Positions 2,592 to 22,317 of a DNA stretch of 64,000 nucleotides are shown piece by piece; within the stretch, counting starts at the first letter, position 1, and each line of letters starts with the position of its first letter. Under the pieces are notes generated by a model. It worked only from the letters and a program-made list of their open reading frames with translations. It was not told the origin of the DNA and did not search any database. The stretch is taken from NCBI GenBank assembly GCA_038064855.1, contig JBBTSE010000007.1, forward strand, positions 18,079-82,078, in the 5' to 3' direction. A program made the translations under genes and the position numbers. This DNA comes from Patescibacteria group bacterium (GTDB lineage: Bacteria > Patescibacteriota > Minisyncoccia > Ryanbacterales > GWA2-47-10b).

Positions 2592-2813
2592 ATGAAAGCG
2601 CTTCACATGGTTGCGTTTATCCTCTTGGTTGTGGGCGGTCTTAATTGGGGGCTTTACCTTTTCGGCTTCGAGGTTGGCGCAAAATTTTTAGGCGGTATGG
2701 ATTCAACTCCTGCCAAAGCGGTCTACGCGCTCGTCGCACTCTCAGCAGTCTTTGAGCTTGTCACGCACAAGTCATCCTGCAAGATGTGCAACAGCAGTTC
2801 GCAGACAATGTAA
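2592..2813 (+). CDS. DUF378 family small membrane protein
   Basis: Characteristic GGLNWGL motif and two TM helices. Confidence 0.7.
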   Translation: MKALHMVAFILLVVGGLNWGLYLFGFEVGAKFLGGMDSTPAKAVYALVALSAVFELVTHKSSCKMCNSSSQTM

Positions 2814-2822
2814 CCTTGTACG

Positions 2823-2858
2823 AAAACACTCGGCACTACCCCCGAGTGTTTTTGTTTT
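2823..2858 (+). terminator. rho-independent terminator
   Basis: Perfect 11-bp stem AAAACACTCGG/CCGAGTGTTTT followed by TTTTGTTTT. Confidence 0.8.
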
Positions 2859-2866
2859 GCTGTGAT

Positions 2867-3508
2867 ATGATAGCGGGTATGCAACGCATACAGCCACGCC
2901 CACCGGTAGTAACAGCATTTGCGTTATTGTTCAGTATCATATTCCTCGCGTTTATTTTTTCGCGTACCTCGTTTGCTATTGTACAAGCGCTTGAGCAGTT
3001 TGGTTTTATACCAGAAAAAATGCTTTCGGTCGGTGAATGGTACCGTATCGTTTCGTCGCTCGGTATACACGAAAATAGTATGTTTCTTGCAGTTGAGGTG
3101 CTTTTCTTGCTTGTACTTGGCGGGCCGTTTGAAAAGAGACAAGGCGCACAACATTTTTTAGTAGTATTTATGGGCGCGTCGCTTGTGTCGTTTATTGCCT
3201 TTAGTTTGTTTGCATGGGGGCAAGGACTTGTGCTGACGGGGTCATTTGCTGGCATTGGTGGAGTTGTAGGCGCATGGGTTGCTGAGACACATGGTCGTAA
3301 GCGAGTTTCTCATTATGGCAATGTAGTCGTAAGAGACTTTGAAGAGTTACCAGCACTTTTGGTTTTAGCATTGTGGCTCTTTGTGATCTTCGTGCTTTCC
3401 ATACTGTTTTCAGCCGATTTTTTCATCTATTTCTCGGCTGTATGCATAGCTACATTTGCGGGGGGCGTAATCCACTTTGCGTTCACGCCAAAGCGCGGTA
3501 AACTATAG
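2867..3508 (+). CDS. rhomboid-like intramembrane protein (catalytic Ser possibly absent)
   Basis: GEWYRIVSSLGIHENSMFLAVEVLFLLVLGGPFEKRQG matches the rhomboid TM2 pattern (WR..T..F.H...H...NM). GASL sits where GxSG is expected. AWVAETHG sits at the His position. Confidence 0.5.
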   Translation: MIAGMQRIQPRPPVVTAFALLFSIIFLAFIFSRTSFAIVQALEQFGFIPEKMLSVGEWYRIVSSLGIHENSMFLAVEVLFLLVLGGPFEKRQGAQHFLVVFMGASLVSFIAFSLFAWGQGLVLTGSFAGIGGVVGAWVAETHGRKRVSHYGNVVVRDFEELPALLVLALWLFVIFVLSILFSADFFIYFSAVCIATFAGGVIHFAFTPKRGKL

Positions 3509-13234: not shown

Positions 13235-15235
13235 ATGAATAAAAAAATCCTCATTGTCCTTGTCGTACTTTTTGTATCAATTGGCGGGTATTGGTATGTG
13301 GGCAGCAATAAAAACGCGCCCGAAGAAAAACTCATTATTGACCCTATAGCGACTGATACCAAGTTCACTGGCAATCAGGTTATCGCCACGGACCACAAGA
13401 TGGTGTTGCAAAAAGGCGCATCGGTTGCGGTTGAGGGTGATCTCAAGATTGATGGTGTACTCTCGTGCGATGATGGCCCCATAATGATATCGGTCACGGG
13501 TGCGCTCGAGGTCAATCAGCGCATCGAATGTATGCGGCCTGACAATAGTACTGACGGCTCAGGCGTGTTGCTCGTGGTCGCCGGTCCCGTGACATTTAGT
13601 AAGGATGCCGAGGTTATATCAAACGGTTCGGTGCAGATTGTCTCGAGCGTATCTGCGGCGAAAAAGACGCAAGGCGAGATTGATGCGCTCTTTATCGAGG
13701 CGGGTACCAACACGGGTGCGGGTACGCGCGTAGGTCCGTTTATCGAAGGTGCGACGCAAAAGATTAGTCTCAACGGCCAACCGATAGATTTTTCATCACT
13801 TGGTTTGATTCGCGAGGCGCATGCACAGGGTGCGCGCGATAAAGACGGTAATCTGTTGCCTCAAGTATTGTTGAGCGGTCGGTGGACTGTTGGCAATGGA
13901 GGCGCCTCACCAAGTGGCGTCTCGGTGCCTACGCCACCAAAAGATATTAAAAAGATTTTGCTCAATTTTGATTTCGGAGACAAGGGCAATGTCGCGATAA
14001 AAGATTTTCACCTACTCGGCCCCGATGGTAGAGACGGCGATGATGACATCGGCAAGTCATGTAGCGCGCGCGGTAGCAAAGGTGAAGACGCATTTCGCAT
14101 GCGTGTGAACGCGGCAAATATCACGATTGATAATTTTAGGTTAGAACTCGGTGACGGCGGCAAGGGAGGGGATGCGGAAACTACTGCTGATTGCGATCCG
14201 GGCCAGGCGACCGGTGGCGCAGGCGGTGCTGCTGGCAATTTCAAAATGACAGCCGGCGACAAGATTGTCATCAATAGTTTTCATATCGTACCAGGCGTGG
14301 GTGGTCAGGGCGGTTTTGCCACAGCCATCGGTAAGCCCGGTACTGACGCATGCCCCGGTAGCAAAGGTGGCGACGCGATTGCCACGGGCGGCGATGGTGG
14401 CAAAAATAAAAAAGAACTTGCGGCCTTGGGTGCAGTAGAGGGTCTCGCGAGTGTGGTGGTTGAAAAAGTCGAAGGCGGTGAAGGTGGTTTGGCTGTCGCC
14501 AAGCCTGGCAAGGGCGGCAACGGTAGCGGATGCAAATGCCATGGTGGCAAAGGTGGCAGTGCCAATGCGACCGGCGGCAAAGGAGGTGACGCTTCACTAA
14601 AAGTGACTGGTGCAGCGGGTGAAGCAGTAGGTGGCGATGGTGGCGATGCCAATGCACGCGCGGCTGAAGGTGGCGTTGGCGGCAGCTGCCCGCTCAAACC
14701 GAAAGGTGGTAGTGGCGGCAACGGTGGCAATGCGGTCGCCAAGATAGGCAAGGCAGGCAAAGGAACTACTGGTGACGGTGCCGATGGCATCGTGCAAGAC
14801 GAGACGGGTGGCAATGGCGGCAAAGGCGGTGACGGTTGCGGACCTGGCGGCGGCGGCAAAGGCGGCCTCGGCAAGCCCAATGGCGCTGACGGCAAACCAG
14901 GCGCACTCAAATGCCCTGAAGACAAGAAATCTCCCCCGCCTCCCATGACTGATCCACGCATATCTCCTCCTCCACCAGCAGGAGATACTACGGGTGGAAC
15001 TGGCACGGATATAATAGAAGTCCAAAAAAAGAAAATAAAAGTAATCCAATACAACGGCAAATATTTGCCCGTAGATCAATTAAAAATTGAAAGTGAAGTT
15101 GGCTGTGGCGCTGATCATTGGCATGCGCTAGAGGGTTTGGTAGTAGCCACCGACGGTACGCGCGTGCAAGACCCCGGCCCACAATGCGGCTACGGCAAAA
15201 CCAGCGAAAAGCCCACCATGAATATAGAAATATAA
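13235..15235 (+). CDS. secreted glycine-rich repeat protein (GG[DKN]GG repeats, PPPP linker, 2-Cys C-terminal domain)
   Basis: Signal anchor, then about 300 aa of GGxGG repeats, PPPPMTDPRISPPPP, then a globular C-terminus. Confidence 0.7.
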   Translation: MNKKILIVLVVLFVSIGGYWYVGSNKNAPEEKLIIDPIATDTKFTGNQVIATDHKMVLQKGASVAVEGDLKIDGVLSCDDGPIMISVTGALEVNQRIECMRPDNSTDGSGVLLVVAGPVTFSKDAEVISNGSVQIVSSVSAAKKTQGEIDALFIEAGTNTGAGTRVGPFIEGATQKISLNGQPIDFSSLGLIREAHAQGARDKDGNLLPQVLLSGRWTVGNGGASPSGVSVPTPPKDIKKILLNFDFGDKGNVAIKDFHLLGPDGRDGDDDIGKSCSARGSKGEDAFRMRVNAANITIDNFRLELGDGGKGGDAETTADCDPGQATGGAGGAAGNFKMTAGDKIVINSFHIVPGVGGQGGFATAIGKPGTDACPGSKGGDAIATGGDGGKNKKELAALGAVEGLASVVVEKVEGGEGGLAVAKPGKGGNGSGCKCHGGKGGSANATGGKGGDASLKVTGAAGEAVGGDGGDANARAAEGGVGGSCPLKPKGGSGGNGGNAVAKIGKAGKGTTGDGADGIVQDETGGNGGKGGDGCGPGGGGKGGLGKPNGADGKPGALKCPEDKKSPPPPMTDPRISPPPPAGDTTGGTGTDIIEVQKKKIKVIQYNGKYLPVDQLKIESEVGCGADHWHALEGLVVATDGTRVQDPGPQCGYGKTSEKPTMNIEI

Positions 15236-15238
15236 CGC

Positions 15239-15928
15239 ATGCGCAAAGTCGCGGTATTTGATGTCGACGGTACGATCTTTCGCTCAAGCTTACTCATTGA
15301 GCTTGTCGATACGCTGATCGCAGAACGCGTATTTCCCAAGAGTGCCGCGCGCGTATATGCCAAGGCAAAAGTTGATTGGCTTGATCGTAAGGGTGACTAC
15401 GAGGCATACATCATGGCGGTGGTGCGTGCGTTTACTCTTCATATCCGCGGATTATCATCAGACAAATTATTGCGCATCTCGCAACAGGTGATTGATATAC
15501 ATAAGCACCGTACCTACCGCTTTACGCGTGAACTATTGAGCGAGTTAGGGCGCAAAAATTATTTTTTACTTGCGATCTCAAATTCACCAAAAGATATTTT
15601 GGATTTGTTTTGTCGCGAGTATGGTTTTGATAAAGTGTACGGTCGTATGTACGAGCTTGACGGCAAGGGTAGGTTTACGGGCAAGGTACTCAATGCGGAT
15701 CTAGCGACTGATAAGGCAAAACTTCTTCTACGCGCGGTCGCCAAAGAAAATCTCACCCTCAAGGGTTCGGTGGGGGTAGGGGATACGGAGGCGGATATCC
15801 CAGTACTCAAAAAAGTAGATCGCGCTATTTGTTTTAATCCAAATAAAAAAATGTATCAGGCGGCTCGGCGCAATGGTTGGGAGATTGTTGTCGAGCGCAA
15901 AGATATGATATATAAGCTTTCTGCATAA
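15239..15928 (+). CDS. HAD-IB family hydrolase (phosphoserine phosphatase-like)
   Basis: Motif I FDVDGTI, motif IV GDTEADIPV. Confidence 0.8.
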   Translation: MRKVAVFDVDGTIFRSSLLIELVDTLIAERVFPKSAARVYAKAKVDWLDRKGDYEAYIMAVVRAFTLHIRGLSSDKLLRISQQVIDIHKHRTYRFTRELLSELGRKNYFLLAISNSPKDILDLFCREYGFDKVYGRMYELDGKGRFTGKVLNADLATDKAKLLLRAVAKENLTLKGSVGVGDTEADIPVLKKVDRAICFNPNKKMYQAARRNGWEIVVERKDMIYKLSA

Positions 15929-15942
15929 AAAGTGAAAGCCGC

Positions 15943-15973
15943 TTACGATCTGATGATCGTAAGCGGCTGGGGC
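15943..15973 (-). terminator. rho-independent terminator for minus-strand transcript
   Basis: Perfect 13-bp stem GCCGCTTACGATC/GATCGTAAGCGGC, 4-nt loop. On the minus strand it is followed by TTTCACTTTTTAT. Confidence 0.65.
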
Positions 15974-15996
15974 GGGCTTGCTCGCCTTGGGCGAGG

Positions 15997-16215
15997 TCAA
16001 AAGTTGGCGAGGCATCCGCGGCACAGCACCCGCTGGGGGAATCTGCGCAGAAGGCCGCGCTTGAGCGGCAGGGCGTGCTCTACGCAGTTACCAAGTCGTT
16101 CGGGTCCAAGGGGCTTAGCATGTGCGTCTGGTTGGATGCAGAGCGTACTGCATTCTTCGGTGGCCTTGCTATGGTTGGGGCACGGCGGTTCCTCGTACTC
16201 GCTTTGTTTTGCCAA
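15997..16215 (-). CDS. small Cys-rich protein (72 aa, 6 Cys), or alternatively a structured ncRNA, inside a GC-rich island
   Basis: Minus-strand promoter TTGACT-N18-TATAGT (about 16240-16275). SD AGAGGAGG 8 nt upstream of TTG start. Terminator immediately downstream. Confidence 0.4.
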   Translation of the reverse strand: MAKQSEYEEPPCPNHSKATEECSTLCIQPDAHAKPLGPERLGNCVEHALPLKRGLLRRFPQRVLCRGCLANF

Positions 16216-16293
16216 AGTACCATCCTCCTCTATAGAAGCACTATACTATATTTTTAACTAAAAGTCAATAGTCAAACATGCTTATTTTTTGGC

Positions 16294-17055
16294 ATGATAG
16301 TCATATTCATGACTGAAATCTCCATCAAAGCAGAGGAACTTTTTCATATCGGCACATTTTCTGTGACGAATTCTTTTTTGCTTTCGGTCATTACGCTTGT
16401 CGTTTTGTTATTTGTAGCAATGCTCGTATATAGAAAGATTTCGATTATACCTGGCAAGCTACAGAGTATGTTTGAGCTTTTGATGGAGTGGCTCTTGGGT
16501 GTCATGGATTCGGTTTTTGGCAACCGTCATGCCTCAGAAAAATATTTTCCACTTATCGCGACTATTTTTTTGTTTATCATGATTTCCAATTGGTTCGGCC
16601 TTTTGCCCATCGTGGGTTCGCTGGGCATTCATGCGGTACATGATGGCCATCATCTGTTTGTGCCACTCTTGCGTGCGCCGGCGGCTGATCTTAATTTCAC
16701 CATCGCGCTCGCTATCATATCAGTATTCTCGATACAATTCTTTGGCGTACTCGCCATAGGTTTTACGCGTCACTTTTCAAAATATTTTACACTCAAAAAC
16801 CCCATACTGACCTTTGTGGGTCTCCTTGAATTTATCGCTGAATTTGTTAAGATAATCTCATTCTCGTTTCGACTCTTCGGCAATGTATTTGCGGGCGAGG
16901 TGCTGCTCATCATTATCGGATTTTTGGTACCGTACGGTGTGCCGCTCCCGTTTCTTTTCCTTGAAGTTTTTGTAGGATTTATTCAGGCGTTTATTTTCGC
17001 CATGCTGACAATGGTTTTTGTCGCGATGGCGGTAAACAAAGAAGCATCCCACTAA
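16294..17055 (+). CDS. atpB: ATP synthase F0 subunit a
   Basis: FRLFGNVFAGEVLL. Confidence 0.9.
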   Translation: MIVIFMTEISIKAEELFHIGTFSVTNSFLLSVITLVVLLFVAMLVYRKISIIPGKLQSMFELLMEWLLGVMDSVFGNRHASEKYFPLIATIFLFIMISNWFGLLPIVGSLGIHAVHDGHHLFVPLLRAPAADLNFTIALAIISVFSIQFFGVLAIGFTRHFSKYFTLKNPILTFVGLLEFIAEFVKIISFSFRLFGNVFAGEVLLIIIGFLVPYGVPLPFLFLEVFVGFIQAFIFAMLTMVFVAMAVNKEASH

Positions 17056-17360: not shown

Positions 17361-17870
17361 ATGAGTGAGCTTGCGAGCCAGCTGGGCATCAACTGGAAAC
17401 TTCTGCTATCGCAAGGAGCGAACTTTTTTGTCTTGCTTACTGCACTCACATTCTTGGTGTGGCGTCCGCTCTTGCGTATCATGCGCGATCGTCGTGAGAA
17501 GATAGAAGAAGGCTTGCATGACGCCGATGAGGCAAAGCAAAAACTCGGTGAGATTGACGCGGTTTTACACGAACGCACGCTTGAGGCGGACAAACAGGCG
17601 TTTGCTATCATTCGTGGTGCAGAGCAAAAGGCAGAGGTGCGCGCCACCGATATCGTTCACAAAGCCGACACGCGCGCGGAAGAATTGCGCCGCGCGGCAC
17701 TTGAAGTGATAGCACAGCGAGAACGCGAAGAGTTTGAAAAATTTGCAGATTCCGCGCGCTCACTCGTACGCAATGCTCTTGCAAAAGCGATCGAGACTGA
17801 GCCCGCCAAGGTAGATGACAAGCTTATCAGTGAGGCGGTCACCTATATACGCAAACAAAAAGCGCTATGA
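17361..17870 (+). CDS. atpF: ATP synthase F0 subunit b
   Basis: N-terminal TM then long charged helix. Confidence 0.85.
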   Translation: MSELASQLGINWKLLLSQGANFFVLLTALTFLVWRPLLRIMRDRREKIEEGLHDADEAKQKLGEIDAVLHERTLEADKQAFAIIRGAEQKAEVRATDIVHKADTRAEELRRAALEVIAQREREEFEKFADSARSLVRNALAKAIETEPAKVDDKLISEAVTYIRKQKAL

Positions 17871-18244
17871 AGTACACTCCTCGTATCTATGCCAAGGCAC
17901 TTATTGAGTCACTCGCGGGCGCGTCTGCGGCGGCTCATGAAGGTATCATCAAGCGATTTTTTGCCGCGGTACGAAGACGGGGGGATGTTCGTCGCGTGCC
18001 GGAGATTATAGAGGCGGTGCGTGAGACCCTGCGCAGACGCGTGGGCGGTAGGCTTGTCGAGATAGCATTTGCACGCCGTCACAAAAAATCTATACTCGAT
18101 TCGTTTCGCACCCTTTTTACAAAACATGATGAAGTAGTCTTTCGTACCGAACCCGAGCTCGCGGCTGGCGTGCGTATTACTATTGATGGTGAACGCGAGT
18201 TTGATCAGACTGCTGCGCGACGCATCAAAAAACTTTTTCGTTAA
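17867..18244 (+). CDS. atpH: ATP synthase F1 delta subunit (short, 125 aa)
   Basis: YAKALIESLAG start. Operon position between b and alpha. ATGA overlap. Confidence 0.7.
   Translation: MKYTPRIYAKALIESLAGASAAAHEGIIKRFFAAVRRRGDVRRVPEIIEAVRETLRRRVGGRLVEIAFARRHKKSILDSFRTLFTKHDEVVFRTEPELAAGVRITIDGEREFDQTAARRIKKLFR

Positions 18245-19781: not shown

Positions 19782-22317
<2,536 letters not shown>

Follow-up and report, generated by a model that had tools for sequence, protein, structure and literature searches.

What is encoded upstream of atpB, on the opposite strand, in the patescibacterial DNA analyzed here: a small cysteine-rich protein or a structured RNA? The question is raised by an intergenic locus (positions 15943-16275) in the window, that is, the whole stretch of 64,000 nt under study. 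Two plus-strand genes flank the locus: a HAD hydrolase gene at 15239-15928, and atpB, which runs from 16294 or 16309 to 17055 and is the first gene of an atpBEFHAGDC operon. A first-pass annotation of the sequence described a self-contained minus-strand transcription unit and offered both answers. The evidence presented below indicates that the locus is very probably a real, unannotated gene for a 72-residue Cys/His-rich protein of about 8 kDa, and not a gene for a structured RNA. The microprotein side of the earlier proposal is upheld, in that the open reading frame (ORF), its TTG start codon, the Shine-Dalgarno (SD) site, and the scaffold of Cys and His residues are kept among relatives while synonymous sites have become saturated. 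The features of the unit and of the adjoining control region are as follows.

16240-16268, minus strand: predicted sigma-70-type promoter, with the -35 hexamer TTGACT (16268-16263), a 17-nt spacer, and the -10 hexamer TATAGT (16245-16240)
16231-16224, minus strand: SD site AGAGGAGG, exactly 8 nt ahead of the TTG codon (16215-16213)
16215-15997, minus strand: predicted microprotein coding sequence (CDS) from the ORF list, 72 amino acids (aa), TTG start, TGA stop, MAKQSEYEEPPCPNHSKATEECSTLCIQPDAHAKPLGPERLGNCVEHALPLKRGLLRRFPQRVLCRGCLANF
15981-15995, minus strand: short hairpin in the 3′ untranslated region (UTR), CTCGCC-CAA-GGCGAG, directly after the stop codon, from the five-lineage alignment
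15927-15968, minus strand: predicted intrinsic terminator, with a perfect 14-bp stem (15968-15937), a 4-nt loop, and the T-tract TTCACTTTTT (15936-15927)
16269-16311, plus strand: putative control region shared back-to-back with atpB, block TTATTTTTTGGCATGATAGTCATATTC-ATG, from the five-lineage intergenic alignment

The expression signals described at first pass are present, with two adjustments. Both promoter hexamers are found and match the consensus at 10 of 12 positions, but the spacer between them is 17 nt and not 18; similarly, the terminator has the perfect stem and T-tract claimed for it, but the stem is 14 bp and not 13. The SD spacing of 8 nt is confirmed, as is the 72-residue ORF with six Cys residues (positions 12, 22, 26, 44, 65, and 68). 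Transcription is predicted to start near 16233, and the terminator abuts the stop codon (15926-15928) of the convergent HAD gene. The promoter and terminator signals alone prove nothing, because comparable sites are similarly frequent in shuffled sequences (promoter-like sites, 3 found versus 4.1 expected; terminator-like sites, 6 versus 3.2). Conservation of the predicted signals as a set in five lineages makes them credible.

Relatives were gathered through homologues of AtpB and the contigs that carry them, and the region upstream of atpB was then located with nhmmer. Five lineages carry the unit: the window (identical in L001-3), L007/14/15, L005/6/12/13, L017-19, and L020/21. In each of them, a monocistronic unit consisting of promoter, SD site, TTG start, ORF, and terminator is kept head-to-head with atpB. 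The ORF ranges from 71 to 83 codons and starts with TTG throughout. The promoter reads TTGAC[T/A]-17-TATAAT in L007, L005, L017-19, and L021, and every lineage has an SD site, which is AGGAGG at 8 nt except in L017-19 (AAGGAG at 9 nt). Conservation of the SD site, the TTG codon, and the initial codons was already seen in the first three-way DNA alignment, and the translated ORFs have in common the motifs PPCPxH, EEC..C, NC..H, RG, and P.R.LCRGC. The linkage to atpB is constant while the other flank varies, being the HAD gene in the window, L007, and L021, a gene for a 667-aa protein in L005, and a gene for a 560-aa protein in L017.

The pattern of substitution in the ORF is that of a coding sequence. 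Between lineages, 24-59% of amino acids and 38-58% of nucleotides are identical, with third codon positions changed the most. The proportion of synonymous differences (pS) is 0.60-0.86, which is saturated, compared with 0.30-0.57 for nonsynonymous differences (pN). Within lineages, five of six single-nucleotide polymorphisms (SNPs) are synonymous (four of the five ORF differences among L017, L018, and L019, and the one difference between L020 and L021; binomial P ~0.005 if 25% are expected to be synonymous). In tblastx comparisons, the frame of the ORF gives the top frame pair in 10 of 10 lineage pairs, and is essentially the only significant frame in the most diverged pairs. A tblastn comparison of L007 with L018 gives an E-value of 9e-27, and nhmmer aligns the window with L017-19 in the 3′ half only (~1e-5). 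With pS above pN, most SNPs silent, tblastx favouring the ORF frame throughout, and similarity kept better in the protein than in the DNA, the sequence is under purifying selection at the protein level. Conservation was among the checks named at first pass, with lack of it in the ORF counting against the proposal, and the ORF is conserved in all five lineages. From these comparisons, there is little doubt that the ORF is protein-coding and probably expressed. On the plus strand, the locus also contains a 109-aa ORF (15932-16261), which had been dismissed as Arg-rich junk; relatives carry stop codons in those frames, so it is not conserved.

It could be argued that the ORF persists by recent common ancestry alone, is non-functional, and is covered by a transcript that is only noise. 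All of the carriers are indeed close relatives (AtpB at least 86% identical), and gene callers pass over the ORF. However, saturation of the synonymous sites has left the reading frame, the start, and the stop region invariant, together with 11 residues. The ORF also remains open over 71-83 codons even in two lineages in which its guanine-plus-cytosine (GC) content is 46-52%, where stop codons are frequent. Together with the predominance of synonymous SNPs within lineages, this leaves chance persistence of a functionless frame a very slight probability.

The same substitution pattern bears on the second answer, according to which the locus specifies a structured noncoding RNA of about 300 nt, either of a new class or a divergent form of RNase P RNA, signal recognition particle (SRP) RNA, 6S RNA, or transfer-messenger RNA (tmRNA), with the ORF incidental. 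The local rise in GC and the free-standing promoter and terminator are in keeping with such a gene, as GC-rich intergenic structured RNAs share these properties. GC amounts to 55.3% for 15943-16275 and to 60.3% for the ORF, and a 200-nt sliding window peaks at 62%; the figure for the whole window is 49.1%, and the immediate flanks have 35-46%. The GC-rich island proposed earlier therefore does stand above its flanks, but the value of about 62% given for it is reached only at the sliding-window peak and not over the span as a whole. The long ORFs of the window range from 42% to 63% GC, and given this range the microprotein ORF is an outlier, but not an extreme one. In three of the five lineages, the GC content of the ORF is 11 to 18 points above that of the adjacent atp operon, but in the remaining two the excess is just 4 and 2 points; likewise, GC at third codon positions is 0.61-0.71 in the ORF compared with ~0.46-0.50 in atpA in three lineages, with almost no enrichment in the other two. 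Being near-absent in two of five lineages, the GC island is not a conserved property of the locus, which argues against an RNA gene defined by it.

Folding analysis gives a similar result. The whole transcript folds better than shuffled sequences (z = -3.7), and for the CDS taken by itself the z-scores are -3.15 (L007) and about -2 (L005 and L021), as might be expected of a structured RNA. However, the CDS of the window has z = -0.14 against dinucleotide shuffles, the values for the other lineages being inconsistent (-1.3 to -3.2), which indicates that the whole-transcript value comes from the hairpins of the 3′ UTR. The covariation term of RNAalifold on the five transcripts is -0.12, and only the terminator hairpin keeps compensatory pairs; the other helices are broken in one or two of the five sequences. 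The short 3′-UTR hairpin at 15981-15995 shows compensatory changes among the window, L007, and L005 (CTCGCC/GGCGAG, CCCCGC/GCGGGG, and CTACGC/GCGTAG, respectively) and is missing in L018 and L021. The 5′ UTR is ~65 nt in L005 and L021, versus ~18 nt in the window. In those two relatives, a GCGAC-loop-GTCGC hairpin in the 5′ UTR abuts AGGAGG (L005, about 2867-2925, minus strand; L021, about 2870-2925, minus strand), and could affect translation initiation.

Known RNA families are likewise not recognized at the locus. Rfam cmscan yields no match at the gathering score and ARAGORN yields no tRNA or tmRNA gene anywhere in the window (1-64000), in agreement with the failure of the first-pass annotation to find tmRNA, RNase P, or SRP consensus blocks. 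At E<=10, the only Rfam matches at 15850-16350 are three chance ones far under threshold: two microRNA-family models on the terminator stem (24.1 bits versus a gathering score of 93, and 14.8 versus 94), and the small-RNA model Atu_C4 at 16298-16348, inside atpB (13.6 versus 80). A divergent RNase P RNA without the S-domain was considered on account of a resemblance by eye ('AGCAAGGCCA', 'CCAUAG', 'GAGGAAC'), and was rejected because there is no RNase P match at E<=10 and no P4-type pairing partner, and because the region proved to be coding. The lack of an Rfam match alone does not decide between RNA and protein. Taken with the lack of covariation outside the terminator, the lack of excess folding energy in the window CDS, and the codon-type evolution that sets the locus apart from GC-rich intergenic RNAs, it largely refutes the structured-RNA alternative, the probability of which is now very small.

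The predicted protein belongs to a family that is narrow and under-annotated, being so far known only from a small clade of groundwater Patescibacteria. The ORF is not called by gene callers in L001-3, L007, and L017-19, and in L005 a wrong-strand gene of 82 aa (2654-2902, plus strand) is called over the locus. The sole database protein of the family is P0121 (L020, 53-289; E=3.5e-12 and 2.2e-28), which belongs to the L020/21 lineage and was called independently in another assembly; the ATG called as its start lies seven codons ahead of the TTG that follows the SD site and serves as start codon in the other lineages. A word-indexed search of 5.8 billion proteins with the single 72-aa sequence gave no candidate, and with a six-sequence profile gave P0121 only. 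In a HMMER search over 1.84 billion representatives, P0121 was again the only real match, the three others being repeat proteins and low-complexity noise. Back-translated patterns, scanned against GTDB species genomes and JGI metagenomes, recovered only the same lineages apart from one chance match described below, and a pattern scan of IMG/VR returned no match. No match to the microprotein was found in Pfam (hmmscan at E<=10), in a profile search of PDB sequences at E<=10, in PADLOC or PHROGs, or in phage genomes by tblastn, and NCBIfam gave only a meaningless match at E=0.21. This therefore constitutes a new, previously undescribed orphan family of Cys/His microproteins.

Three further resemblances were encountered in these comparisons. 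An exact nine-residue match to EYEEPPCPN in an unrelated 272-aa protein (L016, 3001-3078) was judged to be chance, as the scan pattern had been built from that motif. A possible copy downstream of atpC in L023 (tblastn E=0.24) has no ORF behind the match and was also attributed to chance. In a lineage that does not have the microprotein, a promoter-led pair of overlapping ORFs is located divergently upstream of DHO_dh-atpB (L008, 1291-1733, minus strand, the same as L023, 7291-7733, minus strand). The first ORF of the pair is called as 94 aa and is probably 77 aa; the second, of 53 aa, starts with MIICKDHDMPREECGCADPD, which resembles module 1 of the microprotein (CPNHPGLPIEECGC) with a tblastn E-value of only ~0.2. 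This 53-aa ORF could be a relative of half the size, or the resemblance could be due to chance.

Certain residues of the microprotein have been retained in all lineages. In the five-lineage protein alignment, M1, C12, H15, C22, C26, G42, C44, H47, G54, P60, R62, and C65 are invariant, and C68 is present in four of the five. These residues fall into two modules, each consisting of a CP[ND/T]H knuckle followed by a pair of Cys residues. Module 1 of the window protein is C12-P-N-H15...C22-x3-C26 (C-x2-H...C-x1-3-C across lineages), and module 2 is C44-x2-H47-x17-C65-x2-C68, with the broader pattern H-x2-P-L-x-R-G-[LM]-x2-R-[FYH]-P-x-R-x-L-C-R-x-C. In L007, the knuckles read CPNHPG and CPDHPG, which suggests, from the similarity of the two motifs, that the modules are related and may have arisen by internal duplication. 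The N-terminal half of the protein is acidic, and the C-terminal module (PLKRGLLRRFPQRVLCRGC) is basic. Binding of metal through the conserved Cys and His residues is a reasonable, somewhat better than even, expectation from this pattern. The most likely arrangement would be one metal ion per module, held by two Cys3His sets, with zinc as the default guess.

AlphaFold2, run on a two-sequence alignment, modelled the window protein with a mean pLDDT of 49.5 and P0121 with one of 56.4. The C-terminal module of the P0121 model (pLDDT ~60-75) consists of short strands and then a helix (72-77) beginning at C71-x2-C74. This gives a weak but consistent indication that the C-terminal module may be treble-clef-like, with a β-hairpin and a helix that begins at the CxxC motif.

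The same ligands could instead hold an iron-sulfur cluster or serve in thiol-redox chemistry, with the protein acting in electron transfer or redox sensing. Five invariant Cys and two invariant His residues would suffice as mixed Cys/His ligands of a [2Fe-2S] or [4Fe-4S] site, and the hosts, groundwater Patescibacteria, are largely anaerobic. However, the ligand spacing (C-x2-H...C-x1-3-C and C-x2-H-x17-C-x2-C) fits no ferredoxin, Rieske, or CDGSH signature known to us, there is no Pfam match at E<=10, and a pair of distinct sets of four ligands is more suggestive of two structural metal sites. An iron-sulfur or redox function is therefore considered unlikely.

Among known metal-binding folds, the C-terminal module has a likeness by eye to the HNH motif (PF01844), reading E-H-x2-P-L-x-R-G-L-x5-6-R-x-L-C-R-G-C. 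The HNH core consensus is ...H-[ILV]-x-P-x3-G-G-x5-N-L-x2-L-C-x2-C-H. In the microprotein, by contrast, the position of the structural Asn is variable (Q, N, K, R, or S), and Leu, Ile, or Ala follows the CxxC in place of the final metal-binding His/Asn; Pfam gives no match at E<=10. Because the residues that define an active HNH site are not conserved and no Pfam match exists, the microprotein is not regarded as a nuclease or as a member of the HNH family; a structural role in holding metal is more probable for H47. The zf-CHCC domain of NDUFS6-like proteins (PF10276) is alike in having a Cys-His-Cys-Cys set, H-P after the first knuckle (in some lineages of the microprotein), and C-x2-C near the C-terminus, as judged from the general pattern of that family. 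It differs in spacing and in having one module where the microprotein has two, and hmmscan does not match it to the microprotein.

Small, Cys-rich, fast-evolving proteins of narrow distribution may also be toxins or precursors of ribosomally synthesized and post-translationally modified peptides, and the microprotein has each of these traits. However, no modifying enzyme, transporter, immunity gene, or antitoxin adjoins the gene in any lineage, its neighbours being the HAD gene, a gene for a Gly-rich protein, and the atp operon. In addition, the protein has no leader/core architecture and no signal peptide, PADLOC gives no match, and conserved positions are found along the entire chain, His, Pro, Arg, and Gly residues among them. 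A role as a peptide precursor or toxin is thus highly improbable.

As a putative structural metal-binding protein, the product would be expected to act by binding, since it is too small and too poor in residues of catalytic type to be an enzyme. In the mechanism proposed, it would bind metal, most likely two zinc ions through its two Cys3His sets, and would then associate with a nucleic acid or protein partner; this last step is speculative. The candidate partners would be the atp promoter region and the F-type ATPase, the sole contextual hint being the persistent head-to-head linkage to the atp operon.

The arrangement of the shared intergenic region bears on this possibility. The ~45 bp between the -35 hexamer of the microprotein gene and the start codon of atpB are strongly conserved. 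In the window, no SD site is present ahead of atpB, within 16281-16311, and GATAGT is located 7 nt before the ATG at 16309. The block TTATTTTTTGGCATGATAGTCATATTC-ATG is conserved in the five lineages, with GATAGT or TATAGT (GATAAG in L005) 7-9 nt before the ATG. This suggests that the mRNA of the atp operon may be leaderless, with its promoter placed back-to-back with that of the microprotein gene. The atpB start at 16294 (a 253-aa ORF) is probably wrong, because relatives start at MTE... (16309).

The epsilon subunit of the ATP synthase was a second reason for considering such a link. Its C-terminal helical domain normally inhibits ATP hydrolysis. In the window, the epsilon subunit (22078-22317, plus strand) is 79 aa long and consists of the beta-sandwich domain (PF02823) only, without the C-terminal helical domain. 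The microprotein could accordingly be imagined as a lineage-specific, metal-dependent regulator of energy conversion that binds either the shared promoter region of the apparently leaderless atp operon or F1Fo, where it would replace the missing inhibitory domain of epsilon.

Several observations weigh against this picture of a metal-binding protein tied to the atp genes. The epsilon subunit is also 79-84 aa long in L022 (14769-15023) and L023 (14707-14946), both of which lack the microprotein, and a correlation of epsilon truncation with microprotein presence is thereby ruled out. The five lineages are closely related, with AtpB 86-89% identical among carriers, so that the conserved position beside atpB argues only weakly for a functional link, and no copy is detectable within 9 kb of atpB in relatives in which AtpB is 73-75% identical. 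The microprotein evolves fast by comparison with AtpB, as its identities given above show. The last Cys is absent from L005, in which a C-terminal frame change gives ...LCVGAFPS, and the second site is therefore not strictly conserved. Neither AlphaFold2 model is confident and Foldseek against the PDB gives nothing under E=6, so the putative fold and metal sites are drawn from the residue pattern only. Given the equally short epsilon subunits of L022 and L023, a functional connection of whatever kind with the atp operon or ATP synthase is rated unlikely, and the specific role of a regulator that acts on the shared promoter or stands in for the epsilon domain is rated more doubtful still.

Small proteins of comparable kinds have been described in other organisms. 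Brz of Halobacterium salinarum regulates transcription of the neighbouring gene bop (PMC2253796). Brz and the CPxCG-type small proteins of Haloferax volcanii (PMC10117724) are alike to the microprotein in being ~60-70 aa long and missed or nearly missed by annotation, in being encoded by free-standing intergenic genes beside the gene acted on, and in having Cys knuckles as their only recognizable feature. The differences are that they have no sequence similarity to the microprotein and that their hosts are archaeal and not bacterial. Furthermore, the microprotein has no CPxCG motif of the kind found in Brz and HVO_2753; its knuckles are CP[ND/T]H with second halves C-x1-3-C and C-x2-C, giving Cys3His and not Cys4 sets. 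AtpTheta of cyanobacteria, a protein of ~50-70 aa encoded by a free-standing gene, controls ATP synthase (bioRxiv 10.1101/2021.07.30.454416; PMC9241938). With the C-terminal domain of epsilon, it provides a precedent for control of ATP synthase by a small protein, to be set beside a microprotein gene that adjoins the atp operon. AtpTheta is, however, helical and Cys-free and has no similarity to the microprotein. Synteny of AtpTheta with the atp genes was also considered as a parallel and discarded, as the gene is described as free-standing with no mention of synteny, which leaves a functional precedent only. Brz and AtpTheta are precedents, not relatives.

The wider neighbourhood of the unit has some further features. 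The window belongs to a genome of Patescibacteria (Candidate Phyla Radiation) from 0.1-µm-filtered Hainich groundwater; an identical copy of the HAD protein is found on ENA contigs Hain_H51_01um, and the AtpB protein is labelled 'Patescibacteria group bacterium'. Upstream of the HAD gene, at 13235-15235 (plus strand), a 666-aa Gly-rich protein with long GGxGG-type runs and an N-terminal hydrophobic segment is encoded; it has no Pfam match, its region is locally GC-rich (up to 64.5%), and versions of 560-678 aa occupy the same place in relatives. Within the atp operon, the delta subunit (17867-18244, plus strand) is 125 aa long; its match to the OSCP profile, which only just reaches threshold, is confined to positions 54-168 of 172, and the subunit appears to be N-terminally shortened.

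The locus illustrates how a gene can be skipped in most assemblies, and placed on the wrong strand in one, and then be recovered by reading the sequence by eye and comparing relatives. It also illustrates that high GC, good folding, and a promoter and terminator of its own do not necessarily make an intergenic island an RNA gene. As it stands, the finding adds one more orphan small protein of a familiar kind, small, rich in Cys and His, and putatively metal-binding, and its interest is modest. The host Patescibacteria have tiny genomes, in which the genes that are kept tend to matter, and if the link to the atp operon were true, the microprotein would represent a new means of controlling an ATP synthase in which the usual brake, provided by epsilon, is missing.

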